Below the pieces are notes generated by a model that saw only the letters and a program-made list of their open reading frames with translations, ran no database searches and was not told the DNA's origin. From the IMG/VR virus record IMGVR_UViG_3300031949_001696: DNA of 64,000 nt. One strand, given 5' to 3'. Each line of letters begins with the position of its first letter. The stretch's first letter is position 1. The DNA comes from a virus. Taxonomy: Duplodnaviria; Caudoviricetes. The position numbers and the translations under genes were made by a program. Positions 23,317 through 47,970 of this stretch are shown piece after piece.

Positions 23317-23386
23317 CAGTCCTCCTGTTTCAGTTGCTCGCGCAGCTCGCGAATCTGCGCGTCGGTGATCGTGCCGGCCGTGAGCT

Positions 23387-23779
23387 TCACGTACCGCTCC
23401 TGGCGTTGAGGATCTCGGCGCAGCGCGCGCGAACCTGCTCCTTGGCGCGCGGAATCTCGGCCTCGGTCGCGCAGCCGTAACCGATATACGTGCCGTCGGG
23501 CAGGGTGATGCCCACCGACCACACGCCTAGCTCGCCGTTGTACTCCGCGAGGATCTGCTCGTTCGTGATCAACCGCAACGCACGCGCGTTGAACAGCTCG
23601 GCGCAGTGGGCGCGAGCCTCCCGGCGATCTTCCGTGCTCCAGCCAGGCAGCGTCGCCACGGTCAGCTCGATGGCAGCGATCTCGTCCGCGTAGAACAGCT
23701 CGCGGATCTGATCGTCGGTGATCGTGGCGGCGGTGAGCTTCGCGGCATTATCTGCACGGGAAGTGATCAAGTCGCCCAT
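23387..23779 (-). CDS. KLTAxTITDxQIREL family protein
   Basis: KLTAATITDDQIREL...RARCAEILNAR. Confidence 0.65.
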   Translation of the reverse strand: MGDLITSRADNAAKLTAATITDDQIRELFYADEIAAIELTVATLPGWSTEDRREARAHCAELFNARALRLITNEQILAEYNGELGVWSVGITLPDGTYIGYGCATEAEIPRAKEQVRARCAEILNARSGT

Positions 23780-24295
23780 GGCTCTGCTCCTCGCTCGTCC
23801 CAGAGTTGCTCGAATGCCGATTCTCCGGTGTCGGGATCTTTCCCGGCCCGCGCCGCGGCAGTGCGCCAGTATGCCCGGGCGACTTCTTTGAGACGTAGTG
23901 CTTCGGAGATCTGTGCGGCGCTCACGACGTGCAGCTCGATCTGGACATCTGGCACCTGGAATAGATTGTGTTCGGACGCCTCGGCGATCACCTGGGCGTG
24001 CGCGTCCTGCATGCTCGTCGCGCGTACGAACACAGCACGCCGGAATTTGGCTGATCCGGTCGTCGTTATTGCCAGGAATGGCGCCTTGTCGTCGTTGAGG
24101 AATTTCCTCGCGTCCTTGCGCGCCTTAGATCTCGCTTTCACGGACAGCCCCCGAGCATGATGGTGGCGAGGACGAAGAGGAGCGCCACGACCGCCCACGC
24201 GGTCAACGAGCCCTCGGTAGGCGAAGAGCACTGTTGCTCGCGCTCGGCGGCGGCGTAGAACGTGATCGAGCGATCGGGGCCGTAGATGGGATCAT

Positions 24296-24877
24296 TCACG
24301 AGGGGCTCCTTTCTTCGTTGGCCTTCTTGAGCGCAAAGAACAGCTCGCCTTGCTCGATCGCGTCGTCGATCGCGACATGCGTGTGCGGACGGCTCTTCGA
24401 CACGTACTTCTTCATCGTCTGCTTGGTGACCTCGCGGTACCCGCAGCGCATGAGCGCCATCGCGTAGGTCTTGATGTCGAGCGCGGAGAACGAGAACGGA
24501 CTCTTGCCAGATCCAAGGAACCGGATCAGGTACCAATAGACGAATAGGAAGTCGAAGCCGGCCGGATATCCGACGAACACAGGCTTGCCTCCGCCACGCT
24601 CCGCCACGCTCTTGACCCAGCTTGCGAACATCGGCATCGCGACGTCGGGCGAGATCGGGCTAGCGCGACACGCCTTCCACGCCTCGGGCTGCGTCTCCCA
24701 CCACTTCATGGTGTCTGCGTCGGAGATCGCGCCGCGCAGCTCCTCAAGGTTGATCGTGTACGTGTCGATCATCTTGCCGGTACCGTCGAAGGCGGCGGCG
24801 CCCAACGACAGCATTGAGTTGATGCCCGGAATGGGCCCGTCGGTCTCGATGTCCACGCTGAAGTAGATTTCGCTCAT
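24296..24877 (-). CDS. DEDDh 3'-5' exonuclease (RNase AS-like)
   Basis: [21 protein letters not shown]. Confidence 0.85.
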
Positions 24878-26533
24878 GTCAAGGTTCCCGGTTCGATTCG
24901 TTTTCCGAGGATCGCGTCGAGCGCGACCATCAGGTCGTCGATATCTGCGCGCTCGATCACGATCTCGGCGCTGGGCGTATGCGTCTTCGAGATCCGGAGG
25001 TTCCCGCCGCCGGTCTCCTCGACGAGGATCGATCCGACGACGTGACGTGATCGACTAGTGATGGGGCTATTGATCGTCACGAGGTTTTCTCCGCCTGCGC
25101 GGCAGCGCGCTCCAGGTTTTGGGCGTGCAGATCGCTGCCGTGCTCGCGGAGCTTCGTTGCCGCGAGACGGTACGCAGCGGCGACGACGTCTCCGCCTCTC
25201 GCGTGGCTGCTGTCGTACTCGCGCGCGGCGGCGAGCAGGATCTTGGTGGCGTGCCAGGTGTCGTGCATGGGCGTGTCCTTGTTTCAGTAGTAGGGGTCGT
25301 ATTCGCGGACGATCGGAGGCTCGTAGCCGTCGAGGTAGATGACGGGTGCCAAGAAGCCGGCGCGCTCGCGCAGCCCGCGCTTCATGTCGACGAGGAACTC
25401 GTCGGTGATCGCGTAGCGATCTTGCGGAGCGACCTTGATCACGATTTCGAGGTCGAAGCGTCCGTGGATGCGCGCGAAGTTCGCGGTCTCCTTGTCCTTG
25501 CAGCGCGTCTCGATCTGGTTCATGAGCCAATCGAGGTGCTCCTGCGAGATGTCGTTGGTTTTCATTCGGACTTCTCCTTGATGACGATGGCTTCGACCGT
25601 CGGCGTGTCGAAGAGCGCGCGTACGGCCTTCATGGGCACTTGAATAATCAGCTCGCGCACGAGCTTGTCTTCGCGTCTCTTGAGGTACTCGGGTGGAAAG
25701 CCGCCGTTCTCGTCGACGGTGTACTCGTCGACAGCGGTGACGAGCCATGGAAGGTCGTCGCCGTCGCCCGCGTGCCAGAGGGTGTAGATCATCATCGGGG
25801 TCATGGGCGCACCGTCCCGACGACGTGGACCTCGGTTAGCTTGTCGCCACTAAAGCGCGGGCCTCCGACCTGCCAGCGCACGATGCCGCCCACGACGGAT
25901 CGCTTCGCCGCCGATACGACTTGCCCGCGGCGGGTCGTGAGATCGAAGTCGGCCGTGATCGGTTCCAGCTGGTGCTCGAACACGGCGCTCGGCATGCTCC
26001 AGCGACCGTCGGCTGCCGAGGGATTTGACGAGTGCTGCCAGCGGCAGACGCGGAGCTTGCCGGCCTTCTGCGATGGCTCCAGTACGATGACGATCTTGAA
26101 CGTCTTGCACGTCCGATCGCGGCAGATCTGGCCTGAGTCTATCACGAAGGATCCTTGGCGAGTTCGCGCTGGTCAGCTTCGCCCCGCGGGAGACGCACGA
26201 ACGTGCAGTTTTTCCAACGCCGCTCGCGCCCGTCGAAGGCGCGGATCGTGTACTCGCTTTCGCCCTCGATCGCGATCAGTTCACCGACGCAATCGATCGG
26301 CCTGCCGCGGATGTTGGTCACCTCCAGGACGAGCTGACCAGGCGCGATCTCGCGCATCCAGTCGAACAAGCGGCGAGCCGCGGGCGTAACGTTGTGTGAC
26401 GATCTCCAGAGCTGCTCGCCGGTCGCAACGAGCATGGCGGCGAGGTTTTCGACGGCTTCACGCTTCTCGTATTCGAGTCGCTGACAGCCGTCGCAATCGG
26501 GATACGGGTCGCCTGGGAGCTGTGGATCGTCAG

Positions 26534-27523
26534 TCATTTGGTTTCTCCCCGGACCTTGCCGCGACCCTTGCGGTAGCGGAATGGACGCCGGGTCCGGTTG
26601 GCCTCGATCAGGTCGTCGCGTTCGAGGTTCGTCAGCGCGACGATCACAGTCGTAGCCTTGACGGCAGTGCCGCGGTCGGCAGCGCTTTGCACGATGTCGC
26701 GCGTTGTCATCCACGGGAAGTCGCGCGGCATCCCCAGGATCTCAAGCACGAGCGCTGTCGTCGTTCCCGCGCGCGGCGGCGGGCGTAGTGGCCGATCCCA
26801 CGACGCGCGAGGGTGCTCGTGCCAGATCTTGGGTGCCGCGTCGAGTGCGGCTTTGTGTGCGAGATTAGCGGAAGCGTAACGCCGGATGTCGCCGCTCTGC
26901 GTCCGCAGGAAGCTGCCGTCGACGTAGGCCATCCAACGCGGCAGCTCGCTCTGGGGCGCTTCGTCATAAACGACGCCCACGCCCTCACACGGAGGTCGAT
27001 CTGTGTCCTCGAAGATGTTCTTGAGGTGAGGGCAGCCGCAGTACCGGTGCTCGCCCCAGATGCGCTCGCACCCGGCGTTGCACAGATCGCAGCGGATGCT
27101 CGGTGCGGACTCGGCGTCAATCTGGGAAAGCGCGGCCATGGAGGCGGCGATCGCGTCGATGACGTTGTCGCCCGTGAGCTTCCACTCGGGCCTGTGGATC
27201 ACGGTCGGATCGTAACTGCACAGATCGAGCCCCGGAGACCACTTGCGGTGGTCGTGGCCGTAGCCGTCGTGGCCTATGAGCGTTCCGAGCCCATAGCGCG
27301 CTGCGAACCGACCGAGACCGGCGATGAACCGTGGATCGCTCTCGGAGAGGCGATCTGGGGTCGCGTCCCAGAACTCGACTAGCGGCTCCGCGCTGTCGTG
27401 CACGATACCGTGATGCCAGAAGCCGTCGTTTCTGCCGTAGGTATCTCCCTCGCGCACGATCCGAACGTTGAAGGCTCGACCAACATCGTTCACGACGCGC
27501 GTGACGATAACCGGCGCGTCCAT
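26534..27523 (-). CDS. multi-module hypothetical protein with C-terminal wHTH-like segment
   Basis: N-terminus is paralogous to 28197..28568; ends MTTRDIVQSAADRG...VALTNLERDDLIE. Confidence 0.6.
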   Translation of the reverse strand: MDAPVIVTRVVNDVGRAFNVRIVREGDTYGRNDGFWHHGIVHDSAEPLVEFWDATPDRLSESDPRFIAGLGRFAARYGLGTLIGHDGYGHDHRKWSPGLDLCSYDPTVIHRPEWKLTGDNVIDAIAASMAALSQIDAESAPSIRCDLCNAGCERIWGEHRYCGCPHLKNIFEDTDRPPCEGVGVVYDEAPQSELPRWMAYVDGSFLRTQSGDIRRYASANLAHKAALDAAPKIWHEHPRASWDRPLRPPPRAGTTTALVLEILGMPRDFPWMTTRDIVQSAADRGTAVKATTVIVALTNLERDDLIEANRTRRPFRYRKGRGKVRGETK

Positions 27524-28196
27524 GTCAGTTGCTCTCTTCGCGGATCTGCGCGGCCTGCGCACTCTGCGAAAGCACGTAGACGACCGCGTATGCGAGGTAG
27601 CGGGGGTCGTTTTCCTGGCCGAGCTTCTCGTTGATCGCGGGCATGTTCGGCTCGATCACGCGCGTCAGGATCTGCGCCGTTGCGTCGAGATCACCGTGGA
27701 TTTCGTACAGCCGCGCAGCTTCGTTGATCTGCGCTTCGGTCAGAAACTGCGGCAGGGTGAAGGTCTTCACGACGACAGCCTCCTCACGGTCTCGGCGACG
27801 AGAACGAGATCGCCCGTTGGCTCACTGGGTTCGCGAGTCATTTCGGCTGCTCGACGCTTGGCCTGCGCGAAGCTGGGCCAGTCGCCGCGGTACTCGTTGT
27901 CGACGTAGAGTCCCCAGCCGGTGACTTTGGCGCGCTCCTTGAGACGGACCAGACACGCGCGACCGTCCTGTTGGTCGTAGCCGCCGGGTGCCTTGCGCCA
28001 CCACGTCGGATCGAGGGGTCGCAGCGGCTTCACGACAGCGCTCCTTCGATGCGAGAGCCGCACTCGGACCACCACTTGTCGAACGCCTTTTCGGCCTCGC
28101 GACCTACGGCGTCGTGATTGCCGAGCGAGCTTCGACCGTGCAAGTAGCCTACGACGAACAAGCGAAGCGCCTCGCGGCGGCGTTGATCTTCGGACT

Positions 28197-28568
28197 TCAC
28201 GACGCCACCTCCGCCAGCGCTGTCTCGGCGGCAGCGATCACTTCCATCACGTTGGCACCCGTCACCTTCCACTCGGACACGTGGCCGCACAGATCGAGCC
28301 CGGACGAACCCAGACGGTGACCTTGGCCGAAGTAGCCGTCCTTGCCGGTGAGCGTGCCGAGGAAGTAGCGAGAAGCGAACTGGCCGAGTCCGGGCGTGAA
28401 CCGCGGATCGTTCTCCAGGGACGCGTCCCAGAACTCGATGAGGGGCTCGTTCCGGTCATGGACGAGGACGTCGTCGAGGCCGTAGCAGTCACCCTTGCGC
28501 ACGAGGCGCACATTGAACGCATAGCCGACGCTGTTGACGACACGCGCGATGATCATCGGAGTCTTCAT
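28197..28568 (-). CDS. hypothetical protein (paralog of the 26534..27523 N-terminus)
   Basis: FNVRLVRKGD.YG...EPLIEFWDA...GLGQFASRY. Confidence 0.65.
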   Translation of the reverse strand: MKTPMIIARVVNSVGYAFNVRLVRKGDCYGLDDVLVHDRNEPLIEFWDASLENDPRFTPGLGQFASRYFLGTLTGKDGYFGQGHRLGSSGLDLCGHVSEWKVTGANVMEVIAAAETALAEVAS

Positions 28569-28782
28569 TGATTGGGCTCCCACTGCATGCCGCACGGGAC
28601 GAGTCCGGCGGCGTCGAAGTCTTCGGGGTACGGCTTGGCATCATCGAAGCTCCACTCGTCTGGTGGAACGCGTGCGACGCACAGAAGCGTGAGATCGGGG
28701 GACTTCGCCCGTTCGCCGTTGCCCTGGATGAGCTGCGTGTTGGTGTTGCCGCAGTGCGGGCACTTCGCGCGAGTCGGGTGCT

Positions 28783-32458: not shown

Positions 32459-33988
32459 TTACGCGCCTTTCTGAGCAGTGCGCGGAGCCAATCGCGCTCG
32501 GCCATAAAGCAGTCTCTCAATAGCCGCGCTAATGGCTAGTTTGTCTTTCTGCCAGTTACGAACGGTGTCAGGAGACACGGCCAGAAGATCAGCGGCAGCT
32601 GAGATACTCGCGCCATGAAACGTCGGGCTCGCTGCGGACCGAGCTGCGCGCAGGATGCTGCGCACGCATTCTTTGTCTCCGCATGACTTTCGTTTCGCGA
32701 AGACGCACGGACTGTCGCCGTCCCGTGGTTCAAGCAGCACACTACAGCCTGGACATCGGCGCCCATCAACAAGCTTCGTGGTGGTTCGTACCAGAGAGGC
32801 GTATTTGCTCGCACATGTCCCTTCACCACAGGTCTTTCGCCCTACGAAGTTTTCTAGCCTTTCCCCGGCCCTCCGCTCAATAAGCTCATCACAGATTGGA
32901 CAGTGCCTCGCGACAACCACGGTGACGGCTCTTTTGAGCGCGCTTGCTTTGGTCGCGCAGCCTGCTTTCATGCCGCACGTCTTCCGCCTCATGAAAACGC
33001 ACGGCGTTTCGCCGCCTTTTCGTTTGAGTGGTTTCGTACAGCTCGGGCAGCACCGCCCTGCGATAACCTTCGTAGTCGTCTGGAGGTTGCTTGCGCATTT
33101 TTGGCCGCACGTCGAGCGCTTCGCGAATTCGTATAGCGGTTCGCCCTCTTTCCGCTCGAGCAACTTCTTGCAACTCGGGCGTGGGCAGCGACGCCCCGCG
33201 ACGATCTTCGTCGTGGTGCGTACCATAGACTTGTACTTGCTCACGCACGCCTTATCACAGCACGTGGCGCGTTTGGAAAACCACGTCAGGCTTTCCCAGG
33301 CCCTCCGCTCAAGCACCGCGTCACAGCTTGGACAACAGCGTCCCGCAACAACCTTCACGGCGGGTTTTTGTGCGGCAACCCACGCAAAAGCGCACTTACG
33401 ACTGCACGTCTTTCGCTTCACGAACCTGTGCTGCGCTTCGCCTTCCTTCTGCTTGAGCGTTTTTCTACAACTCGGACTCGGACAGCGGCGACCGGTAACG
33501 ACCTTCGTAGTCGTCCTGAACTTGCTCAGGCACTCGTCTCGGCCGCACGTCTTCCGCTTCGCGAATGACCACGTCTTCTCACCCTCTTTTTGCCTGAGCA
33601 GCTTCTTGCAGCTCGGACAGCGGCGTCCAACGACGATCTTCGTCGTGGTCCTCACCGCGGACAAGAGTTTGGCCCCGCAGCCCTCTTTATTATGGCCGCA
33701 CGTCTTCCGCTTCGCGAACGCAGACAGTGACTCGGCCTTTTTTTGCTTGAGCAGCTTCTTACAACTCAGGCAACGGCGACCGACGACGATCTCGGTGACA
33801 ATTCTTTTCGCCGCGCCAAGCTGATAGACGCACGTGCGATCGCACGTCTTTCTTTTTGCGAAGTCACACGGCTTCTCTCCGTTTTTGCGCTTGAGCTTCT
33901 TCTTGCAGCTCTCACAACGGCGCCCTGTGACATCCTTCGTAGCGATCAGTGGCGCAGTGAGCTTGGAGCGGAGGGAGGAGAGCTTCAC
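32459..33988 (-). CDS. Nine-repeat Cys4 zinc-finger-array protein with C-terminal HTH (start could be 34081)
   Basis: 9 x [K(I/V)VxGRRCxxC..L.(R/Q)K.GExxxxF.KRKTC..C], then FHGASISAAADLLAVSPDTVRNW; GGAGG before GTG 33988. Confidence 0.8.
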   Translation of the reverse strand: MKLSSLRSKLTAPLIATKDVTGRRCESCKKKLKRKNGEKPCDFAKRKTCDRTCVYQLGAAKRIVTEIVVGRRCLSCKKLLKQKKAESLSAFAKRKTCGHNKEGCGAKLLSAVRTTTKIVVGRRCPSCKKLLRQKEGEKTWSFAKRKTCGRDECLSKFRTTTKVVTGRRCPSPSCRKTLKQKEGEAQHRFVKRKTCSRKCAFAWVAAQKPAVKVVAGRCCPSCDAVLERRAWESLTWFSKRATCCDKACVSKYKSMVRTTTKIVAGRRCPRPSCKKLLERKEGEPLYEFAKRSTCGQKCASNLQTTTKVIAGRCCPSCTKPLKRKGGETPCVFMRRKTCGMKAGCATKASALKRAVTVVVARHCPICDELIERRAGERLENFVGRKTCGEGTCASKYASLVRTTTKLVDGRRCPGCSVLLEPRDGDSPCVFAKRKSCGDKECVRSILRAARSAASPTFHGASISAAADLLAVSPDTVRNWQKDKLAISAAIERLLYGRARLAPRTAQKGA

Positions 33989-34070
33989 ACGCCCTCCCAA
34001 AGCTCGGCGATCTGCCTCGCGGTGAGTACGGCGGCGCGTTTCACGAACTCGCCACCAAAGCCATTCCAGC

Positions 34071-35573
34071 TCACCGCACACCTTCTTGAGTGGTGCGCGG
34101 AGTCGGGCGTGCTCGATTACAAAGGTCTTTCGGCTGGAGGGACTTCTCGATAGCCGTGTCGATAGTCATTCCACAGCTCCGCCAATTATGAATCGTAGAG
34201 CTTGTCACACCTAGAAGTGCAGCGGCAGCTGAGACGTCCGTCCCATGAAACAGTTTCTTATACTGACACTCTTCATCTCGACATAACTTTCGTTTTGCGA
34301 AACTGCTCGCGCTCTCGTTATTCCGTTGTTCAAGCAGCTTTCTACATCTCAGGCATCGCCGCCCAGCGATGACCTTTGTAGTGGTGCGCACCCTGGATTT
34401 ATTCTTACGAACGCATACTTCATCACCGCACGTCGCTCGTTTTGCAAAAGCACTCGGACTTTCCCCGGCGCTCTGCTCAAGAAGCTCAGCGCAGATTGGA
34501 CAACGGCGCCCTGCGACGATCTTCGTGGTAGTTGTGTGTGCCGCTCCCAGCAGGACGGCACACTCACCGCCGCATGTCTTTCGTGCCGCGAATGCACTTG
34601 GCGCCTCCCCCTTTCTTGGTTTGAGTAGCTTCGTACAACTCGGACAGCGGCGCCCGACGACAACCTTCGTGGTCGTCAGGAACCTATACACACATCGTTT
34701 TTTACCGCACGTTTTCCGCACAGCGAACGCGGCTACGGGCTCGCCCTCTTTTCGCTTGAGCGACTTCCTACAACTCGGACAGCTTCTCCCTGCGACGACC
34801 TTCGTGGTGGTCAGCACTTCGGCCAAGTGTTTTGCTGCGCAGCCCGCTTTCTTGCCGCACGTCTTTCGACTCAAAAAGTCATTCCGTGACTCTCCTTCTC
34901 TTCGCTTCAATGCTTTTTTGCAGCCGGGTGCCAGACAAAAACGCGCTGGATCGCTCTTCGCCCAGGTCGCGGATAGCAGGCTGCCATAACATTTCTCCCC
35001 GCACGTCTTCCGTCCCGCGAAGGCGTTTAGCGCCTCGCTCTTTCTTCGCTTGAGCAGCTTCCTACAACTCGGACAGCGTCGCCGCGTGACGGTGCGAACA
35101 ACTCCGCCGCTGTGAATGACATGTTGGTGCCAGCTCACGCACTTCTTTCGACCACACGTCTTCCGTCTTGCAAATGAGCTTAGCGACTCGCCTTTTTTTC
35201 GCTTGAGCAGCTGCTTACAACTTGGGCAACGTCGCCCCGCGACGACCTTGATGGTGGTCCTTGTCGCCTTGCTAAGTTTTGCCGCACAGCCTGCTTTATG
35301 ACCGCACGTCTTCCGCCGCGCGAAGAAAAAAGGCGATTCGCTCTCCTTTCGCTCAAGCACTTTGTCGCAGATCCGACAACAACGCCCCGCGACGATCTTG
35401 GTAATGAACCTTTTCGCCATGCCCAGTAGGGCCGCACAGCCCGCTTTCTTACCGCACGTCTTCCGACTTGCGAAGTTACCGAGCTGCTCTCCCTCCTTCC
35501 GCTTGAGCACCTTGCCGCAGACCAGGCAACGACGCCCTGCGACGATCTTGAAGGAAGAGCGTTGCGCCATCAT
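34071..35573 (-). CDS. Nine-repeat Cys4 zinc-finger-array protein with C-terminal HTH (paralog)
   Basis: Same repeat x9, then FHGTDVSAAAALLGVTSSTIHNW. Confidence 0.8.
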   Translation of the reverse strand: MMAQRSSFKIVAGRRCLVCGKVLKRKEGEQLGNFASRKTCGKKAGCAALLGMAKRFITKIVAGRCCRICDKVLERKESESPFFFARRKTCGHKAGCAAKLSKATRTTIKVVAGRRCPSCKQLLKRKKGESLSSFARRKTCGRKKCVSWHQHVIHSGGVVRTVTRRRCPSCRKLLKRRKSEALNAFAGRKTCGEKCYGSLLSATWAKSDPARFCLAPGCKKALKRREGESRNDFLSRKTCGKKAGCAAKHLAEVLTTTKVVAGRSCPSCRKSLKRKEGEPVAAFAVRKTCGKKRCVYRFLTTTKVVVGRRCPSCTKLLKPRKGEAPSAFAARKTCGGECAVLLGAAHTTTTKIVAGRRCPICAELLEQSAGESPSAFAKRATCGDEVCVRKNKSRVRTTTKVIAGRRCLRCRKLLEQRNNESASSFAKRKLCRDEECQYKKLFHGTDVSAAAALLGVTSSTIHNWRSCGMTIDTAIEKSLQPKDLCNRARPTPRTTQEGVR

Positions 35574-37726
35574 CGTGTCCTCGACCGCTCATTCCCGCGC
35601 CCTGCGCGATCGATGTGCTCGATCCACTCCGCGGGGATTTTACCTGCCTGCACGGCTTTCTCCGCACGCGCCCGTAGCTCCGCACGCCGCTCCTCAAACT
35701 GCTTCCAGTTCAACAGGACGAGTTCGGCCTCCTGCTCCTCAAAGATCTGTCGCCGCGGCTTCCTCTCCGGCTGCTCAGCGCCGCAGTGTTTGCACTTGGT
35801 GCACGACCACGCGATCACCGCTGGACATCCGACACAGTCTTTGACGCGCGGTTCAACGTCTGCGTTAGGGCGCTCCCCCGCGCCATGCTCAAGAGACCAT
35901 GGCCAATCTTCGCCGGGAACGTGCAGAAGGCGCTCACAGTTTGCGCCGTGATCGAGCACGATCTTTTTGGTCGGTCCTTCTGCGCGTAGCACGCGGGCGA
36001 TCATCTGCATGAATCTGGCGAGGCTCTTGGTGGGACGCGCGATGATGACTGCGCCGAGCTCTGGCAGATCCCAGCCCTCGCAAAGCACGTCGACGTTGCA
36101 CAAGACTTCAAGCTCGCCGCGGCGAAACCTGCCGATGAGCCGTTCGCGCTCAGTCGCGTCTGTCTCACCGTCGAGATAAGCCGCCTTGATCCCAGCCTTC
36201 CTGAACTGCGCGGCGATCCTCTTCGCGTGCTGACGGGTCGCACCAAACACGAGCTTGCGAACACTCGGAGCCCACTTGATGGCCTCCTTGACGACGTGGC
36301 CGATCAGTAGCGGCCGATCCACCGCGCGACGGAGCGACGACGACGCGTAATCGCCGCCGATCGTCTTTGCACCTTTGAGACCCTTCGCGAGTGCTGCAAT
36401 AATCTTGGCATCTGCATGGAGCGTGACAGGATCACGCAGGTAGCCGGCGGCATACAATTCGCTGGGCTTGGCGGCGACCTTCAGAACCTGAAAGAAGTCG
36501 CCGAGACCACGACCATCGAGACGGCACGGCGTGGCCGTCAAGCCGAGCGCGTCGGCACGCGGACACCTCGCCGCAATCGCCTGATACGAATCGGCCATCG
36601 CGCGGTGCGCCTCGTCGAAGACGATCAGGTCGATGTCTTCCGGCAGCTCACGGAGGCTGATCGTCTGCACGCTGCCGATCTGAACACGTGCGTCGAGGTC
36701 CACGTGCTCGGGGTAGAGCTGCTCGTACTTCGCACACTGGACGCCGCAGCGCACGCCAAGTTTCACGAGTCGAGCGCGCGCCTGACCGATCAGCTCAGTC
36801 CGATGGGCCAGCCAGAGCACACCACGCCAACGCTTTGTCCGCGAAATGAGAAGTGACGCAATGACGGTTTTTCCAGATCCTCCGGGAGCGACCAGGAGAA
36901 CGCGACGATCTTTCGCGAGCAGCGGGTCCAGCTCGACGACGGTGCGCTCCTGATACGGACGACGATCTAGTTCCTGTGAAATGCCTGCGGCAAGTCGAAA
37001 GGCCGCTACGCGTTCGGCAGGCAGCGCGTACGGTGAAGCAGCTGCTGGATAAGCACGGGAGGCGGCTAGATCATCTGTAGTGATCCGGGCGAACGCCGGT
37101 TGCATCACCGAAGACTTCTCGATGGAGCTATCGCGCCAGAGCGCCGCACACATCGGCATTCGATGTCCCGTATAAGCCAGGACGGACACGAGCCGATGAT
37201 CTTGCGGGGTTCGCCTGTCAAGCAATTCCACGCGGCCCGCCAGTATCGGATCTGGGATCCCCCCGAATGTTCCGTGATCGTACTGCTCGACGACATCACG
37301 TCCATAAGAGAACGTGAGCATGAAGACCCCACGACGAACGATCGCCGAGTAGACGTCAACCACATTCTCGACATCACGTGTGATCGAGCCGCAAAGATCC
37401 AAGTTGATCGCGTCAACCCCGTGCAGCTCCTTGAGCGGGGGTCTCTTGAAAAGATCGGCGTGCACAACTAGATCCGCTCCCGCCTTGGTCGCGGCCCGAC
37501 AACATGCTGGGTCGCGATCGACGGCAATCACCACAGCCGTTGGCATGTGCCGACGAATGCATGCGATCTCTTCAGCCGGCTCGGGACCGGCAACCATAGC
37601 CAGCCGCCATTTGGCATGGTGGACTCTGTCCCGACGCCGAAGAAACGCTTTTACCGCGAGCCAGTGCTCTTCGCGGACAAAGCGCTTGGCATCGGTGCTC
37701 TTGGAAGCGTCAAACTTACGAGTCAC
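35570..37726 (-). CDS. SF2 (RadD/YejH-like) helicase with N-terminal methyltransferase-like domain and C-terminal Zn ribbon
   Basis: APGGSGKT, DEAH, GLTATP, EGWDLP, QMIARVLR, CVGC...CKHC. N-terminus VIAVDRD...HADLF...INLDLCG is Rossmann-like. Confidence 0.85.
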   Translation of the reverse strand: MTRKFDASKSTDAKRFVREEHWLAVKAFLRRRDRVHHAKWRLAMVAGPEPAEEIACIRRHMPTAVVIAVDRDPACCRAATKAGADLVVHADLFKRPPLKELHGVDAINLDLCGSITRDVENVVDVYSAIVRRGVFMLTFSYGRDVVEQYDHGTFGGIPDPILAGRVELLDRRTPQDHRLVSVLAYTGHRMPMCAALWRDSSIEKSSVMQPAFARITTDDLAASRAYPAAASPYALPAERVAAFRLAAGISQELDRRPYQERTVVELDPLLAKDRRVLLVAPGGSGKTVIASLLISRTKRWRGVLWLAHRTELIGQARARLVKLGVRCGVQCAKYEQLYPEHVDLDARVQIGSVQTISLRELPEDIDLIVFDEAHRAMADSYQAIAARCPRADALGLTATPCRLDGRGLGDFFQVLKVAAKPSELYAAGYLRDPVTLHADAKIIAALAKGLKGAKTIGGDYASSSLRRAVDRPLLIGHVVKEAIKWAPSVRKLVFGATRQHAKRIAAQFRKAGIKAAYLDGETDATERERLIGRFRRGELEVLCNVDVLCEGWDLPELGAVIIARPTKSLARFMQMIARVLRAEGPTKKIVLDHGANCERLLHVPGEDWPWSLEHGAGERPNADVEPRVKDCVGCPAVIAWSCTKCKHCGAEQPERKPRRQIFEEQEAELVLLNWKQFEERRAELRARAEKAVQAGKIPAEWIEHIDRAGRGNERSRTR

Positions 37727-37938: not shown

Positions 37939-37968
37939 GCGGAAGCTGTATCAGTGTTCTCGCGCGCT

Positions 37969-37987: not shown

Positions 37988-38263
37988 CCTGTAGCAGCTG
38001 GAGTCCGCGGAGGGTTGCGTCTTGGGCAGTACGTAGGGGACGATCACCTCGACGACGACGTACTCACCGTCCGATCGAAACGTGACAAACAGCGCGCCAC
38101 CCACGCGCACGGTCGGAAGGAAGGTTGCCCAGTGCGCGAGGTCCTGCGCATCGAGATTGGGTTCGTCGGAGGTCGACACGTTAGGCGGCGACCTCGGCCA
38201 TCCAGCCGCGGAGGCGGGCGAGGGTTGCGGAGTCGATCAGGTTTTTGATGCAGATCGCCATGA

Positions 38264-38818
38264 CTAACCTTTCTTAGCGCCGGTCGCGCGCTCGACACGT
38301 TCGGCAAGTTCCTCGATTTCAGACATACGCATCAGGGGCATGAATTCGCGTCTCGGCCTGAAGATGAAAGCGTAGGGGCAGTTGTAAGGAACGATCATCT
38401 GGTCGTTGAGCATTTGGCCGAGGTTGAGCACGAACTTTCCTGGAGCACAGGTTCCGAATTCAACGAAGAGCGTGGCTTTCTCATCGGGAAAGTCGATAGC
38501 GAGATCTGCTCTGCCAAACAGCGTGTTGATTTCGCGTTCACTGCTGTTTCCGAGTGCTGCGACGAAGCGCCAGGCTGGCTCCCTTGGGTCGTGACAGGTC
38601 AACGGCTGTGGTAAAGGCAAGTGGAAAACTTCGACACGATCTGCTTGAACCCAGGCAGCCAAGAGTGAACATGCCCAGGGATCCGAGAGGCGCCGTTCAC
38701 CCCATGGGATGAAGACCTCTTGTGGTTTCCAACCACGACCGTCTGGTGTTTTCCAAGTCACGCCGGGAAATGTGATGGCCTTGCGGACGTGCTCGTTTGT
38801 CTCAAGAACATCCAGCAT
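38264..38818 (-). CDS. hypothetical protein, possible PD-(D/E)XK-like fold
   Basis: GRADLAI...LFVEFG; lower GC. Confidence 0.45.
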   Translation of the reverse strand: MLDVLETNEHVRKAITFPGVTWKTPDGRGWKPQEVFIPWGERRLSDPWACSLLAAWVQADRVEVFHLPLPQPLTCHDPREPAWRFVAALGNSSEREINTLFGRADLAIDFPDEKATLFVEFGTCAPGKFVLNLGQMLNDQMIVPYNCPYAFIFRPRREFMPLMRMSEIEELAERVERATGAKKG

Positions 38819-38889
38819 TCTGTTTCCCTTCTTATTGGGGTGTTGCGTTCCGCTGCGGACCAGTGCGGCGAGCTGCTATCGTCGGGACG

Positions 38890-39357
38890 GTGAAAACAGC
38901 CAGCGATGCACCGGCAGCGATCGAACCGCTGGAGGATCGCGAGGTCGATGGCGCGACGCTCAAGGAGTTGCACACCGCGTACAAGGAGCTCCGCACGGCG
39001 TACGTCGACTTGCACAAGAGACATCACGAGCGGATCACCGATGCGCTCGCTGATCGTAAGGAGGAAGGCAAGAAGACGGGTGGCGATGTGCCGTACGGAT
39101 ACCGACTGGATTCCGACAACGAGACCTTGATCGAGGACGAGTCCGAGCAAGCCGTGATCGCCGAAGCCGTGCGGTTGCGCGAAGAGGGCCTATCGCTGCG
39201 CCGGATCGCGCGAGAGCTGTGGAAGCAGAAGCTGCGTCCGAGGCCGGTCCCCCGGGATCGGCGGCGAGGTGCCCTAAAGACGAAGCGCTTTGGAGAATTC
39301 GATCCGACGCAGATCAAGCGCATGATCGAGGCGCACAAGACACGCACTGCGGAATGA
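38890..39357 (+). CDS. Serine-recombinase C-terminal (Recombinase domain)-like protein lacking the catalytic domain
   Basis: ERITDAL...GGDVPYGYRL...EQAVI...GLSLRRIAREL. Confidence 0.65.
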   Translation: MKTASDAPAAIEPLEDREVDGATLKELHTAYKELRTAYVDLHKRHHERITDALADRKEEGKKTGGDVPYGYRLDSDNETLIEDESEQAVIAEAVRLREEGLSLRRIARELWKQKLRPRPVPRDRRRGALKTKRFGEFDPTQIKRMIEAHKTRTAE

Positions 39358-39361
39358 CGCA

Positions 39362-40324
39362 TCACTTTTTGCGGAACTTCTTGGGCAAGAGATCGAGGAA
39401 CTGCTTCGCCGGCGCATTGGGGCTGTCCGCAAGCTTCATGTAGCGCTCGGTCGTGTCCCGCTTGCTGTGCAGAAGGCTCCGTTGCACGACGTCGATCGGA
39501 ACGCCGCGCTGCTTGGCGATCGTAGCGACGGATCGTCGGAACGCGTGCGGCGTGAACTTCGAGTGGTCGACGAACTTCGCCCGAGCTGCCTGCCTCTTGA
39601 CCGCGTTTCGCACGGTGCCCACGCCGATACCCCTCGCACCCTTCGCGGTGCCGCGGAACAAGGGACCGGCCGTGATGCAGAACTCCGCGGCCCAGGCCCG
39701 CAGGAGCTTGGCGAGTGGCGCGACAAGCTCGATGCGGCCGTACTTGCCGCCCTTGACGCGAACACGAAGAAACCAGTTGTCCGAACCAGCCTGCGGCTCG
39801 AAGGCGTCGATCGCGACACGCGCGACTTCGGCTCGGCGGAGGCCCGTCATCGCGAGCGTCATCGCTATCAGGTAGTCGCGGCGCTCGACGAAGCTGTCGT
39901 CGTCGGGGCCGGCACCGAGGAACTTCTCTAGCTCTTCGGCCGACAGCCACGGTGTCTTCAGCTCGGCGTTGTCGCCCTTGGGGTTGCGAGCCTCGCGCGC
40001 TGGGTTCGCGACGACGAGCACGCCCTCTCGAGCGAGCGCCGCGTAGACGGCGCGGATCACGGCAAGTGCACGAGCGCGGGTGCTCTGGCGTTTTCCGCTC
40101 GATCGGAGACCGAGCAAATAGGTCTGCACATCGAACGTGGTTGCGGCGAGCGGGGATGTCCCCTTCGCGGCGAGGTACGAAATGAAGCGCTGCCACTCCT
40201 CGCGGTACGCGCGAACGCTCTCGGGGCTGCCGAGGTCGGAGAGGATCCGGGCGAAGGCGGCGGCGACGCGCGGATCGGCACTAGGGACGACGACGAGGGC
40301 ATTGGTGGGGTCCTGGGCTCTCAT
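39362..40324 (-). CDS. Tyrosine recombinase (XerC/D-like)
   Basis: TGLRRAEV, VKGGK, HAFRRS, LLHSKRDTTERY; SAM-like N-terminus SPESVRAY. Confidence 0.92.
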   Translation of the reverse strand: MRAQDPTNALVVVPSADPRVAAAFARILSDLGSPESVRAYREEWQRFISYLAAKGTSPLAATTFDVQTYLLGLRSSGKRQSTRARALAVIRAVYAALAREGVLVVANPAREARNPKGDNAELKTPWLSAEELEKFLGAGPDDDSFVERRDYLIAMTLAMTGLRRAEVARVAIDAFEPQAGSDNWFLRVRVKGGKYGRIELVAPLAKLLRAWAAEFCITAGPLFRGTAKGARGIGVGTVRNAVKRQAARAKFVDHSKFTPHAFRRSVATIAKQRGVPIDVVQRSLLHSKRDTTERYMKLADSPNAPAKQFLDLLPKKFRKK

Positions 40325-40336
40325 TCGGGCACTTAT

Positions 40337-40367
40337 ATTTGACGATAATGGGACCTTACCGGCAAGT
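40337..40367. other. dif-like tyrosine recombinase core site
   Basis: ATTTGACGATAA-TGGGACC-TTACCGGCAAGT: imperfect inverted arms with TAA-N7-TTA, just upstream of the recombinase start. Confidence 0.55.
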
Positions 40368-42854
40368 GCGACGTAAACTATTGAAATCTATGTGACGCTT
40401 ATATGAAGTGTCTCAAATCGATCACGATCGCACGATCGCGCTGGTAAGGTCGGGGGATGCCAAGGGCCCAGGTGAGCTACTACGAGCTGATCTACGAGGC
40501 GATCCGAGCCAAGCTAGTCGCCGAGACCAAGCACCGTAAGAAACGCGCGCTCGAAGCGTGGATCCTCGCCGAGCGCGAGTGCGTGATGCGCGAGATCAAC
40601 CACCATCGTGGTCTGCTCGCCTACGAGCCCGTCGACCTCGCGGTCGTCAAGCGCGCCGAGCGTCTGGCCGTCGGGCACAGCGACTACGTCTCGAAGTATG
40701 CCCACGCGGCGGCGGACCTGGTGTGCCGCAAGGAGACAACGTGATCCGCGAGAAAACAACGGCGCTGAAGAATCATCGACAGGCCACGCCGGGATCCGGC
40801 GCGCGAGCTGCGTGGTGGTACGGAAACCGTTCCGAGATCGAAGTCGTGATCGAGTGCCGAACGCCCGGCGGCGGCACGGTGACCGGCCTCGCGAAGATCA
40901 GCCGTCAGGCGCTGGCGGAGTGGCTCGACGCGAACAACGGCAAGCCGGGCACCTTCACGTGGCGAGGCAGGGCACGGCGGGATCGAGGTGCACGATGACT
41001 CGGTGCCGGTGTTGCGGTCTCTACGACGGCGCGCACTACAAGGACTGCCTAGCCGAGGAGCGAGCTGCCAAAGAGAAGTTGCAGGCCGCGTGCGATCACC
41101 GCGACGACTACGGCACAACACAAACGACGGGCGACCAGTTGGGACCTCGACGCTGCGGCAGATGCGGGATCGAGTTGAAAGGACGGGTATGAGGCGGCCC
41201 TCTAAGAACGCGTGGTTCGAGAAGCAGCTGTGCGGACCGCTTGTCGTCTACTTCACCGTGTACGACAACGACGCTAACGATGTACGTGTCGAGTGGTGCA
41301 TCTGCCCGGACGATGAGGACAAGAGCGAGGAGCGTGCCTTCGCGGGATCGGATCACGAAATTCGTGGTCCTGCGCGTGAACTCGACGCACTCATCGATCG
41401 CGCTGTGAAGGATGCCGCTGCCGCCGCCACGCGCATCGCGCGGGAGATCCTTGCGTGGGCGCAGGACGGCCTCGATCAGCAGTCTCAGGAGGCGACGTGA
41501 CTCGCAAGAAGAGCATCAGCAGCTACGTCGAGGCCGCTGGCTACGCGTTTGGCAAACCGCCGCCGAAGCCTCCTGGCAAGCCGCCTGACCTGCGCGGTGC
41601 CCACGCCTTCGAGGCGTGCAAAGACGGAGCGCTCATCATCTACGTCACGATGCCCGATGGCGACGGCGAGCCGATCCGCATCGAGCCCCACCGCGTCTGC
41701 GCGGTCCTGGCCGCGTGCGGCGACGCTCTCGCGAGGAAGCCGAGCACCCGATGACCCAGGACGAAGAGCTTCGCTCCCTCCGGGCACGTGTCTCCGAGCT
41801 AGAGGTCGAGCGCGATCGGATGCTGCCGATCTACACGGCCCACGTCGCGGAGGAGCAACGAGTCGCTGAGCGGCGCGAGCGGGCGCGCCTGCGCGTCGCC
41901 GCGCTGACCGAGCACGAGCTACACCGCGAGCAGCGGCACCCAGACTACGAGTACGAGTCGACGGAGAACGCCAGGAAGAGCGGCGATTCTCCGATGCCGC
42001 CTGGTGAGGGCTGGGAGGCGAACGATATCGTGGAGTGCCACATCTATAGGGACGCTGTCGTGTTCGAAGAGCGCTGGCGCAACTGGACCCGCGGCGACTT
42101 CACCGAGACCAACTACTGGAGGCGCAGGAAACCTGCGAAGGAGCAGTCGTGATGGAAACAGCCTTCAAACTCGCGAAGTGCGCCGTGCTGACCTGCCCCA
42201 ACGAGGCAGATCCGCGCTGGTTCGCGCGTGACGTGAACGATCACCCCGTCATGATCTGCGACGGCCACGTGCCGATGCCGAAGCCCGCCGAGGTGGCCGC
42301 GCGCCCGCTGGATCCCGCCGCGCTGGACCTCGCGGCGCGCATCGTCCGCAATGGCTACTCACCGACGCCCAGTGAAGTCGAGCGTGTTTCCCACGCGCTG
42401 CTCGACGAGCAGGAAGAACTGGCCGAGCTGCGCGACATCGCGGGCCTCGTGAGCGATGCCGACATCAACGCGCTGCCGCTCGAGCTGCTGGTGGTACGGC
42501 AGCGTTGGTTGGCCGCGCGCCACGCCAAGGAAGTGGCCGAAGCCGCGGTCGCTCTCGCCGCGATGGGGTGCCAGCAACGTTTCCCATCAACGATTACTGC
42601 GACGCAACTCGTGGTGATGGAGCGTACCTGGCTTGGCCTTCCCAAGCCGAACGCGAAGTGCTTGCTCAAGCTCGGCCATTCTGGGCCGCACATGTGCGAG
42701 CAACCGCCGCCGCTGGAACAGCCATGACCAAGACCGCCTACGCCAAGCGTTTGTCGGACGAAGAAGTCGCCGAGCAAACGAAAGACATGGCGCCCGAGGA
42801 TCGCGAGGAGTACCGCATCGAGAACGCGACCAGCCCCTTGTTCGACATGTGGCT

Positions 42855-43700
42855 TCAAGAGCTAGGCGCGCGAGCCCCGCGCGCACGTTTCATCCGCTCT
42901 AGTTTCAGTTCTAACTCGGCCTCCATCTCCTTGGCCAAGTGAAACAGGTCGGTGCTCTCGATGTCGCGAGCGAACCGGGACAGAACTCGTCGCAAGTCTG
43001 TCGCTGAGGCCAGAAGCGCGTCGTCGCGCTCAACAGCATTTCGCACGTCGTCTACCGACATGTCCCGCGTCAAGAGGTGCGGAAGCGCAAGGCGCCGAAC
43101 TTCGCCGGCAAGATGAAACGCCGCGCGAGTCGCGGTGATCTCCTCGGCGTCTCCGAGGGTCCGCATCATTTCATGCGTGTAGATCCATGCCTGATCTGGC
43201 GCGATCTTGGATAAATCAACGACGCGCGACGGTGAGTGCCCGTTGTAGAGCCTGCTGATGTCGACGCGGTTGCCTAGGAACAGATCGAGCATCACGTAGC
43301 CGATCAAGCCGAACCCCGGCGAGCCCACCTCGATTTTCGCTTTCTCTTGCTGCCTGTCGAAAATCACGTACGCGTGATCTTCGTCGATTTCGCCATCGCC
43401 AGCTCGACGCCGCGCGATCCAGCTCTCGGCATCTCCCGCCTTGCGAAACGTGACCCAAGGCTCGGAGACCCCGTCCTCCAGTGCGATCACGCAGTCGTCC
43501 CACATGATCCGGATCTCCTGTCGGATCGACTCTGGGGATCCCACAGGTCGCGCGGTTACGCTTAACGTGCAGCCGCATTCGAAACCGTGTTGGTGCGCTG
43601 ACGTCGGAGAGGCTTCCGTCCATCGAAGATGGCCGCCCGATGGATTTAGGAAGAAGTTGTCCCGCGCCACGCTAATGCGGTGCTGCTCTGTGGTCGCCAT
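42855..43700 (-). CDS. hypothetical protein, opposite to flanking genes
   Basis: 281-aa ORF; the only long minus-strand gene evident in the plus-strand block. Confidence 0.55.
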   Translation of the reverse strand: MATTEQHRISVARDNFFLNPSGGHLRWTEASPTSAHQHGFECGCTLSVTARPVGSPESIRQEIRIMWDDCVIALEDGVSEPWVTFRKAGDAESWIARRRAGDGEIDEDHAYVIFDRQQEKAKIEVGSPGFGLIGYVMLDLFLGNRVDISRLYNGHSPSRVVDLSKIAPDQAWIYTHEMMRTLGDAEEITATRAAFHLAGEVRRLALPHLLTRDMSVDDVRNAVERDDALLASATDLRRVLSRFARDIESTDLFHLAKEMEAELELKLERMKRARGARAPSS

Positions 43701-43749
43701 GGCGCGATGGTAATCCGAGGCGGCGCGGGGCGGGGCGGCTCATAGTCCT

Positions 43750-43845
43750 CCTGGGTAGCTGGAGACCCGGATATTTCGGGCTCCGCTCCATGCAACTTGG
43801 CGATGGCGCCGTGTAGCTTGAGACACGGGTGCGGGGCTACCCAGG
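43750..43845. ncRNA. Candidate multi-stem structured element
   Basis: 10-bp closing stem CCTGGGTAGC/GCTACCCAGG enclosing three hairpins. Confidence 0.35.
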
Positions 43846-43906
43846 TTTTGCGATCGCGCCCTTGCGCGCCGAACAGATCGGCACGCGGGCAGCAATACCT
43901 GCCGGC

Positions 43907-44170
43907 ATGAAGGAACTGCTCCTCACCGCCGAACAGCTCGCCCTCGTGGTCGAGCCCGTCGTGACCGCGGCGCCTGCCGTGCTCGACGACGCCGCGCTGA
44001 TGGCGATGCCGCTGGTCGACGCCAAGCGCCTCGTCGCGGCCGAGTTCGAGCGGCGCTACCTCGTGCTCCTGATGGAGCGCGCGGAGGGTTCTGTTTCGGA
44101 GGGCGCACGGCTGTCGGGCCTCGATCGCACCAACTTCCGCCGTCTACTCCAGCGGCACGGACTTCGCTGA
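43907..44170 (+). CDS. Stand-alone Fis-type HTH (bEBP C-terminal-like)
   Basis: AKRLVAAEFERRYLVLLMERAEGSVSEGARLSGLDRTNFRRLLQRHGL. Confidence 0.8.
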   Translation: MKELLLTAEQLALVVEPVVTAAPAVLDDAALMAMPLVDAKRLVAAEFERRYLVLLMERAEGSVSEGARLSGLDRTNFRRLLQRHGLR

Positions 44171-46729
44171 GAACCGCCATGCGCGACAAGACAGAAATCG
44201 CGGCGAGCATCGAGCACTGGGAGCGGCTCGCTACGGAGGCCGAGTCCCAAGCGCAGTGGGATCGCGACCACGGTCTCGATCTCTCGAAGCCCGGATGCTC
44301 TGCGGGCGACTACCGCGCGCAGCTGTATCGGCGATGCGCCGAGACCCTTCGCCTGGAAATGCAGACGGGCCTCCCGCACTGCACGACTTGTCTCGGGGCT
44401 CATCCCAACCATCACCACGGCCACCGTGGATAACAACGGATCGCCAGGAAGAAGAGTCATGTCGAAGAAGCGCACGAAGGACACCAAGAATGTCAGGCCC
44501 ACGGTTACGATCTTGACCGTCACGCAGGTCTACATGCGGGGCGAGACCAGCGAGCTGACGCTCGCGTTCGCCTCACGCGAGCGGGCTCTGGAAGCGATCC
44601 AGGCTCACGTGATTAACCCTGAAGCGATCACGACGATCAGCATTCGTACGCTGGCGGTCCTGGCCGATGCGTAACATCCCCGACAAGCTCGCCATGCTCC
44701 GCGCCGTCACGCGCAAGGCGCTCGCTGCTCGCGACGCGATCGACGACTGCTTCTCGCCCGAGTGGCGCGACGCGCACGAGGCGACAGTCGCCGCGTGCAA
44801 GCTCGCGACCGCCGAGATGGAGCGGCTCGCCAAGGATCCCAAGACCCGCTACGGCAGCTGGCGCACGTCGGCCGACGTCGAGCTGATGGCGCTCGGACTT
44901 CTCTAGCATTCTAGCAAGGAACAAATCGCGATGATGACGACACCGAACAACCTGGGTTTTTCCGAGTGCGACAAGTCTCGCGCTCCGAGCGGCTGGGGGC
45001 ACACGTTCCATCACACCGAGCCGCAGCGGCGCGTCCCGTGCGTGCTCGGCGACATGCTCGCGCCGCGCAGCTCCGACGACATCCCGCCGATCACGCCCGA
45101 GGCGATGGCCTCGGTGCAGGCCGCGCTGACGCTGCTCGCGAACCTCATCGCCGATCGTGATCTTGCCCTGTTCATGGGCAGCTTCGAGCGCCTGGAGGAC
45201 CACCGCAGCAAGGCGAGCGACATCCTGCTCGTCGCCAAGGGGTTGGCCGGTATCCTCCGCGTCTCCTCGCCGGAGCAAGCTCCGTGATCCGCGCCATCGC
45301 CCTCATCATCGATGCCGGCTCGCCCGCGTTCGATTGCGCGTACCAGATCCTCACGTGTCCCGCCGATCCCGAGATGGAACGCTACACGTTCACGGCGCCA
45401 CGCGAGGTGACCCGCCGTCGCATCGGCCAGTACGCCGTCGTGAAGTTCTGTCCCGACGATCAATTCGCCTACGAGTGCAAGGAGGCACTACAACCGTGAA
45501 GACCACCGACGACTACACCGATGACGATGCTGCCGACACGCTGCGCTTCCGCCGCGTCGATCTCGACTTCGAGGCCCCGGCCGACCCGGACGCGACCTCG
45601 ATCTATGACCTCACACCCTCGCCGGTGAGCTACGTCGGTCGCAGCCGCGTCTCGCCGCGTCGCCGCCGCCAGATCCGCGACACGCGCGAGAACGTCCTGC
45701 GGCTTCGCGCAGCGCTCGCGGCGGGTTGGGACATCGCGCCCGAGCTGGCGCACGAGGAGCAGCGCCTGTCTGGCCTGATGACGGCAGATCGCCGGTAGGT
45801 GATGACCATGCGCCAATACACGTTCCGCATCTTCCTTTTCGAGCAGCCCAAAGACGGCAACGCGCTCGATCATCGCGAGGTCGCGTCGTACGAGGGTATC
45901 ACCGCTCCGCCGTGGGTGCCTCCGCAAGGCTCCTACTTCCGGTTCCGCGATCCGAATCCACCGGGCCGTCCCGCTGATCATCGCGAGGTCGCTGGATACG
46001 TCGATCAAGTCGTGACGGTGTTCTACGGCACGAGCACGACGATCGAGATCTATCTCAAGGACAAGAAAAACACATGACCGACGGGACAAAGCGTCACTGC
46101 ATCCCCGATCCGTTCCCCGAAACGATCGGGGTCTCCGCCATGACGATCTTCGTCCCCGATGACTTCCGCGGCGACGCCGAGATCATCTGGTGGTACCCTG
46201 GCATGAGCGACGACAAGTACAAGCAGCGCATCACATGCAGCGCCTCCGCGCTGCTCCAGGGCGTGCTTCGTGACGTCCGCGGCGCGCGTCCCACCGCGGA
46301 CGAGCATCTGGTCGCGGCCGACCAGGTCGGCGCTCGCGCGGTTGCACTCGTCGTGCACGCGTTCTACAAGCTGCGGATCGAGAGTGCAGCGCGTCTTGAG
46401 GCCGCGTACCAGTGGCGGTCCTACACGAAAAAATAACGCGCGACCCATGCAATTCCAGAGGCGCTCGCGCGCATGTCTTTGGGAAGCAGCTGGGCTGCAA
46501 CAAGGAAACGCATCATGAATATCAAGAGCATCAAACAGGGTTCGATCGTGGAGACCACCGTGGGTGTGGGTCTCGTGAAGCGCGTCGGCGGAACGCATCC
46601 GCCGAGCGTGCAGATCGCCGTCGTCACGCCCATTCCTCGCGGCATTTGCAACGTGCGTCCTCGTGACGTGTTGCGTGTGCTGTCGGAGGCCGAGGTCGCC
46701 GAGCTGCGCGCCCAAGGACTGAATCTCGG

Positions 46730-47413
46730 ATGATGCCCGACGACGAATTCGAGCGCGAGCACCCGAGCTACGGGATCCTTCACATCTCGCGCACGAGCGG
46801 CGGGACGAGTGCGATCCGGCTCTTTGGCTCGCCGCTCGCGACGCACTACGGAACGATCCGGCTGACGATCTCCAAGGGCAAGTGGATCCACGGCCTCAAC
46901 CACGATCGCTACTACGGCATGAACAAGGACTTCATCGAGGTCGAGATGTCGGCCGCACAGTTTGCCGACGCGATCACGAGCCTCAACATGGGCAGCGGCA
47001 CCCCGTGCACGATCCGATACGTCGACGGCGAACGCGTTGCCGCGCCGCCAGTCCACGCGACCGAAGCCGAACACATCCGTGACAACTTCGAGGGCACGCT
47101 CGACAAGTACAAGGCCAAGGCGCGCACCTATCGCAAGCGCATCGAAGAACTCGCGAGCAAGCTGTCCACGAAGGCGCGCGAGGAGATCCGGATCGCGCTC
47201 GACGTGATGGAGCAGCAGCTCGCCTCCAACGTACCGTTCGTGGTCGAGCAATTCCAGGAGGCCACGTCGCGCATCACGACGTCAGCCAAGGCCGAGGTCG
47301 ACGCCTTCGTTACCGGGGTCGTCCGCGCCGCAGGGCTGCAATCGATCGCGGAGGGCCGTCTGCCGTCGCTCCTGCCGAGCGGCGATGTGAAAGAGCCGGA
47401 GGACAAGCCGTGA
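46730..47413 (+). CDS. phage-type hypothetical protein
   Basis: HPSYG...LFGS...IEVEMSAAQFA...GSGTPCT; strong coding bias. Confidence 0.65.
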   Translation: MMPDDEFEREHPSYGILHISRTSGGTSAIRLFGSPLATHYGTIRLTISKGKWIHGLNHDRYYGMNKDFIEVEMSAAQFADAITSLNMGSGTPCTIRYVDGERVAAPPVHATEAEHIRDNFEGTLDKYKAKARTYRKRIEELASKLSTKAREEIRIALDVMEQQLASNVPFVVEQFQEATSRITTSAKAEVDAFVTGVVRAAGLQSIAEGRLPSLLPSGDVKEPEDKP

Positions 47414-47820
47414 GCAGCATCGACATCTACGCGGTGTTGGAGAAGTTTCGGCACGATTGGAACGCGTATGAAGGCAGCGCCGTGCAGGTCATCGATTCGA
47501 TCACCGAGCACCTGCGCGCGGCCGAGCAGACGGGCTACCTCGGGACGCTCTACCGCACTGACTTCGAGGTCGAGGGCACCGGCGCGTTCCCGATCGACAT
47601 GCTGCGCTACACGAACGCGTGGCCCAAGGGCGAGATCGACTCGCAGGCGATCGAGGACTCACTCGACGACGCAGTTGCCACGGCGTCACCGCGCCGCGGC
47701 CCGCGCACGATCACGCTAACGAAGTACCACCGCGATCCCGAGCCGCAGCTCGCGGGCGATCGCTGGCAGGCCAAGTTCCGGTGGCGCGTCGCGCGCGTCA
47801 TCGAGACGGCGGTGATCTAA

Positions 47821-47970
47821 GTGACTGCCACGCGAACATCCGCAGTTCTCGTCGGCCAGGGCATCGGCGACGCGCTTGGAATGCCGTTCGAAAAGCTCGA
47901 CGACGAAGTGCATCCCGATCTCGCGACGTGGGACGGCTCGTATCAGCCCGGTACGTGGCACGAGCTGCCA
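47821..47970 (+). pseudogene. ADP-ribosylglycohydrolase N-terminal fragment
   Basis: SAVLVGQGIGDALGMPFE...GTWHELP, ending exactly where the GxxTDDT motif should follow. Confidence 0.85.

Follow-up and report, generated by a model that had tools for sequence, protein, structure and literature searches.

Two Genes Split by One Inverted Segment

The window analyzed here is a 64,000-nt stretch of viral DNA (IMG/VR record IMGVR_UViG_3300031949_001696; Duplodnaviria, Caudoviricetes), GC-rich at ~63%. It carries a reciprocal inversion of 24,654 bp (positions 23317–47970) that has cut two accessory genes in two. One encodes an ADP-ribosylglycohydrolase (ARH), and the other is the middle member of a tandem trio of small paralogues. 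An original prediction, made from the sequence of the window, held that a single reciprocal inversion had split both genes and could be reversed in silico. We flipped 23317–47970 by script and inspected the fused open reading frames (ORFs). Both genes were restored, and the prediction was borne out by this re-inversion as well as by wild relatives, two of which (loci L009 and L066) each extend across one of the ancestral junctions.

The N-terminal piece of the ARH gene (47821–47970, + strand; 50 codons) contains the GDALGMPFE motif, ends in GTWHELP, and covers positions 2–48 of the family profile PF03747. The C-terminal piece (22489–23316, − strand; 275 codons) begins with AGHFTDDTEM and covers positions 45–287 of the same profile (E=5e-52). 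Its score of 177.8 bits is well above the cut-off of 26.2 bits, which the N-terminal piece alone does not reach (21.2 bits). Solved ARH structures [Protein Data Bank (PDB) chains] align to the C-terminal piece from their residue 53–60 onward only. The complementary profile ranges and the structure alignments thus mark the two pieces as halves of one gene. Rejoined, they form the predicted in-frame fusion of 325 amino acids (aa), which scored 554 bits as a single domain against a comparison profile built from six full-length relatives; the match is contiguous (profile positions 3–309) and ungapped at the join. Separately, the N- and C-terminal pieces reached 97 and 443 bits, respectively, with the same profile. 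The GDALG..PFE, TDDT, and C-terminal GGDTDT motifs are all found in the rejoined protein, identical or near-identical to those of the relatives. On these sequence grounds, the rejoined product is predicted to be a full-length PF03747 family member with the conserved metal/ADP-ribose site motifs. In full-length match and motifs it resembles the other members considered (DraG, ARH1/ARH3, Tri1, and Thermus 2CWC). Unlike DraG and Tri1, whose equivalog cut-offs it misses by far, it has no assigned substrate, and its gene is split in this genome.

As it stands, the genome has no intact ARH frame: the halves lie 24.65 kb apart on opposite strands. The N-terminal piece reads on past the right break as a 65-aa chimeric ORF (47821–48018, +). 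On the left, a 266-aa remnant (22489–23289, −) starts from an ATG at 23289, beyond the TDDT motif, and no ATG, GTG, or TTG was found in the ARH frame upstream of it. The largest possible ARH product, therefore, lacks 59 N-terminal residues and with them the metal-site motifs GDALGMPFE and TDDT. Because it starts after TDDT, the remnant should be inactive, and the gene is presumably dead. Both pieces retain every conserved motif and contain no stops, which suggests a recent inversion.

In the trio, the first gene (23387–23779, −; 130 aa) is a double unit of the family with the N-terminal tag and C-terminal motif common to its members, and the third (48118–48378, +; 86 aa) belongs to the same family. 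The N-terminal part of the middle gene (23317–23390, −; 24 codons, VKLTAGTITDAQIREL...KQED) lies at the left break and runs out of frame into ARH, giving a 42-aa chimeric ORF (23262–23390, −). Its C-terminal part (47971–48121, +; 49–50 codons, ending in CAEILNARSPT) overlaps the next gene by a GTGA stop/start. A protein search with the 49-aa C-terminal piece gave one match, the natural 75-aa protein P0001 (92% identity over 100% of the length), the N terminus of which fits the 24-codon piece at the left break. The rejoined product of 74 aa aligns end to end with P0001, in keeping with the claim that the middle gene rejoins in frame and restores a member of the trio. What remains are the chimeric 65-aa and 42-aa ORFs, and one small paralogue has been destroyed.

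Proteins of this small family carry the tag KLTA-TITD-QIREL at the N terminus and the motif CAEILNAR at the C terminus, and their genes are chained by GTGA overlaps; no Pfam match to the family was found. Tag sites lie at 23343–23387 (−), 23696–23740 (−), 48121–48165 (+), and 51303–51347 (+), and motif sites at 23399–23422 (−), 23582–23605 (−), 48086–48109 (+), 48496–48519 (+), and 51447–51470 (+). The CAEILNAR proteins may be another “portable tag” family; the relative L066 carries a longer chain of their genes. Downstream of the ARH remnant, the genes at 21942–22475 (−) and 21374–21913 (−) both start with a K-x-x-AQLDREI tag.

Both Ancestral Junctions Are Found in Relatives

A metagenome scan with the ARH C-terminal piece returned 26 loci. 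In eight of them (L002–L006, L008, L009, and L027), the homologue of the N-terminal piece is followed on the very next base by the homologue of the C-terminal piece. L009 (∼91% nucleotide identity) aligned without gaps for 432 nt across the rebuilt ARH junction. Its counterpart of the N-terminal piece, 96% identical at the amino acid level, runs straight into the rest of the gene, and a homologue of the gene at 47410–47820 lies upstream. In another locus, L007, a homologue of 21942–22475 lies downstream of ARH. An extra 161-aa gene (L009 379–864) stands in L009 between the 136-aa gene and ARH, which abut in the window (L009 345–860 compared with window position 47816); this insertion has no obvious repeats at its ends.

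The second ancestral junction is found on L066, the contig that encodes P0001 (5.8 kb, ∼90% nucleotide identity). L066 is colinear with the window from 24109 to 23316 and then continues directly with 47972 to 48378 to 49100 and onward. Its alignment blocks pair L066 1–877 with window 24109–23340 and L066 1117–1523 with window 47972–48378, and an 86-aa gene directly follows the intact 75-aa gene. Farther along, ∼1.27 kb of the window is absent from L066 (49100–50376 compared with L066 1581–2081), a difference consistent with unequal exchange between paralogues. Synteny with relatives, which had been proposed as a check on the prediction, thus revealed the un-inverted order across both junctions. 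The presence of both un-inverted adjacencies in wild relatives shows that the window carries the derived state, with the un-inverted order ancestral and the broken state specific to this lineage.

Megablast searches against phage and plasmid collections gave no match. In IMG/VR, the sole ARH relative had 25% identity, and exact-word searches there with the window's ARH piece and with a trio-gene word common to L066 found nothing. The neighboring gene for an Rv2179c-like exonuclease had 38 IMG/VR loci at 50–60% aa identity that share two to four reading frames with the window. These were set aside as a test of gene order, being too divergent and sharing mostly frames that overlap the exonuclease gene itself.

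The inverted junctions, in turn, were read from contig gene tables in ENA and Logan through exact-protein look-ups. In ENA assembly ERZ27256953, a 38,959-bp contig has the left junction (in order, the 130-aa gene, a 266-aa ARH remnant, and a 177-aa gene), and a 3,773-bp contig has the right junction (the 136-aa gene, the 65-aa chimeric ORF, and the 86-aa gene). A 2,601-bp Logan contig from SRR9005073 has the left junction, with the 42-aa ORF overlapping the 266-aa remnant by 28 nt as in the window. The exact 266-aa remnant of the window is recorded on the Logan contig only. The ENA copy, therefore, may differ slightly, in which case at least two genotypes carry the inversion.

Structure of the Breaks

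Each breakpoint can be placed within ∼3 nt (23313/14 to 23316/17 and 47970/71 to 47973/74). Compared in inverted register (±20 nt, offsets ±6), the two sites agree at 16 of 40 positions, where random site pairs average 15.7, and the longest inverted word common to them within ±30 nt is 5 nt, under the background mean of 6. With L009 and L066 as references, the G at 23316 and the A at 47970 could each be assigned to both genes, which limits microhomology to at most 1 nt per junction. The CTG microhomology initially suggested does not lie at the break. Since the alignment to L009 is ungapped, ARH lost nothing at its join (0 nt). In L066, which reads TGG TAT GCC at this point, the small gene has one codon more; the difference reflects either a loss of 3 nt or an ancestor that already had 74 codons. 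The ARH join as originally drawn gives Ala (GCC), as in five relatives; shifted by 2–3 nt, it gives Arg (CGC) and is equally in frame, and the two closest relatives have Arg (CGC in L009 and CGA in L002). CCCTT, the site of poxvirus-type topoisomerase IB, occurs as a single copy 7 nt from the break and was set aside for that reason. No crossover site of any kind is found at the breaks. The reciprocal junctions, with little or no homology and minimal loss, have the form of an illegitimate (end-joining/topoisomerase-type) inversion.

Also in line with the prediction, the segment spans a strand switch. Minus-strand genes occupy ∼21.4–38.2 kb, together with a recombinase gene, and plus-strand genes run from 40.46 kb onward. 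The switch point at ∼40.4 kb thus lies inside the inverted segment and divides it into unequal arms of ∼17 kb and 7.6 kb. Because the segment contains this transcription-divergence point, every gene has kept its orientation relative to it.

We put a probability of about 80% on a one-off and recent two-break inversion by illegitimate recombination, which was then fixed in the lineage and inactivated ARH. Two unrelated sites 24.65 kb apart, one in the ARH gene and one in the middle trio gene, would have been broken in a recent ancestor. The ends would have been rejoined the wrong way round and almost unprocessed, leaving an overlap of no more than 1 nt at each junction and a loss of 0 or 3 nt. 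We infer that the route was illegitimate recombination, by end joining or a topoisomerase-type exchange, rather than site-specific or homologous recombination. The preserved orientation around the divergence point probably made the inversion tolerable. It would then have become fixed in the phage lineage, at the cost of ARH and one small paralogue.

Several points weigh against this account. It is based on assembled contigs, and a minority un-inverted population may exist. The ENA and Logan assemblies may come from samples that are not independent of the window's source. The sequence alone fits end joining, gyrase/topoisomerase subunit exchange, and replication template switching alike. If the ancestor encoded 74 aa and the exchange cost no nucleotide, it was perfectly conservative; a topoisomerase, or a recombinase working on cryptic sites, would then be a somewhat better fit than end joining.

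Alternative Explanations

The original prediction had stated that no long inverted repeats flank the segment. None lie at the breaks, but two are found nearby, both at paralogue gene boundaries: one of 89 nt and 85% identity (I1; 23343–23431 with 48077–48165) and one of 52 nt and 96% identity (I3; 23693–23744 with 48117–48168). They lie 26 to ∼380 nt from the breaks and were direct repeats before the inversion. Now that they are inverted and 24.4–24.6 kb apart, an illegitimate inversion, itself real, could have left a segment (∼23745–48116) that flips further in the population by homologous recombination between the paralogue boundaries and restores neither gene. The nearby paralogue arrays do vary among relatives (between 49100 and 50376, 1.27 kb may be present or lacking), suggesting active homologous exchange. 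However, the third arrangement that such flipping would produce appears in no assembly, the repeats are short, and the longer one is diverged; we regard continued flipping as improbable. Improbable, too, is the idea that the 52–89-nt repeats 24.5 kb apart have created a newborn, homology-driven invertible segment or that the loss of ARH was itself selected. If true, the newborn segment would offer a view of how invertible regions can come into being.

An artefact, with the segment misoriented during assembly or scaffolding, has to be considered for a genome that is uncultured and metagenomic, the more so as paralogue repeats lie 26 to ∼380 nt from the breaks and support for the junctions comes from assemblies rather than reads. 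Against this, the breaks fall outside the repeats and share no k-mer, both reciprocal junctions are present, and two other assemblies, made by different pipelines, contain the left junction, one of them also the right junction. Contigs also cross the junctions instead of ending there. On these grounds, misassembly of the inverted junctions is unlikely, and we consider misorientation of the whole segment very unlikely.

The original prediction had left it undecided whether the inversion is a fixed event or a switch that toggles ARH, and had noted that the segment contains both recombinase genes. One of the two is an Xer-like tyrosine recombinase (39362–40324, −; PF00589 and PF02899, phrog_1), which remains below cut-off for the XerA, XerC, and XerD models. 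The other (38797–39357, +), convergent with it, has a weak, sub-threshold match to the PF07508 “Recombinase” DNA-binding domain (E=1e-3), and no resolvase catalytic domain was found for it, including in any frame upstream; to speak of two recombinase genes overstates the case. A programmed reversible switch, in which the phage's own recombinase flips the segment and toggles ARH and the small gene, would draw on the Xer-like enzyme inside the segment, on a reciprocal exchange that is nearly or fully conservative, and on the undecayed state of both gene halves. The sites do not fit such a switch. Tyrosine recombinases require identical overlap regions of 6–8 bp, whereas here no more than 1 nt overlaps; there are no inverted-repeat crossover sites, and the similarity of the breaks is not above chance. 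The recombinase gene adjoins the strand switch, 16 kb from one break and 7.6 kb from the other, rather than an end of the segment; the second ORF is not near an end either, and the breaks fall mid-coding sequence in two unrelated genes. Each lineage, moreover, shows one orientation: the inverted form alone in three assemblies (the window, ENA, and Logan) and the un-inverted form alone in the ∼90% identical relatives. The same record supports the fixed event and leaves the toggling alternative highly improbable. In the Mu G and P1 C segments (Gin/Cin), Hin, shufflons, and FimB/FimE, an inverted segment likewise holds a recombinase gene and alters gene products; the phage segment differs from all of these in having no crossover sites and no adjacent invertase, with breaks in unrelated coding sequences and a single orientation per lineage.

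Inversion by intramolecular transposition of an insertion sequence (IS) or transposon can practically be dismissed: IS1595-derived cassettes and a Cas12f1/TnpB-like nuclease domain (PF07282) do occur elsewhere in the genome, but both junctions are pure gene-to-gene joins at which no IS copy, terminal repeat, or target-site duplication was found, and no more than 3 nt are missing from the two rejoined genes.

Neighboring Features

Beyond the right break, 48390–49411 holds tandem paralogues with a common C-terminal LRQLLRDLVDFDMG...GPRNQRR..GDEP module. A related inverted repeat of 76 nt pairs 26458–26533 with 48826–48901. Inside the inverted segment, 32459–37726 forms an island of lower GC content (58–60% compared with ∼63%). 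It encodes a 718-aa helicase and two proteins of 500–540 aa with repeated zinc-finger matches (DNA_ligase_ZBD) and a C-terminal helix-turn-helix, and it looks like a separately acquired block. The 113-aa protein encoded at 43829–44170 (+) has as its sole match a Fis-type HTH_8 domain at the C terminus (PF02954, E=2e-5).

Discussion

Two-break inversions in phage and bacterial genomes arise by Ku/LigD-type end joining or by gyrase/topoisomerase subunit exchange; gyrase-mediated exchange has reportedly been described by Ikeda. Mosaic joints in mycobacteriophages are an example of illegitimate recombination. The present inversion shares with known illegitimate rearrangements its breaks at unrelated sequences, microhomology of 0–1 nt, little or no loss, reciprocal junctions, and genes cut mid-frame. 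It does not differ from them in kind, although the phage case is unusually clean, with ancestral junctions preserved in ∼90% identical relatives and with undecayed genes. A literature search on phage inversions and illegitimate recombination found nothing specific.

In bacterial chromosomes, “X-alignments” are produced by inversions that span the replication origin, the terminus, or a transcription-divergence point. The phage inversion is similar in that it spans a switch and keeps gene orientation. It differs in its unequal arms (∼17 and 7.6 kb), and its strand switch may or may not be a replication origin.

For the annotation of this genome, the inversion accounts for two fragments of genes and for two small chimeric ORFs. 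It is a textbook-style example that adds no new mechanism or system. For the phage itself, ARH would be a fresh pseudogene, and no activity that reverses ADP-ribosylation should be credited to it. What the locus offers is a well-documented, near-lossless illegitimate inversion in a giant uncultured soil phage, with both ancestral junctions kept in wild relatives.

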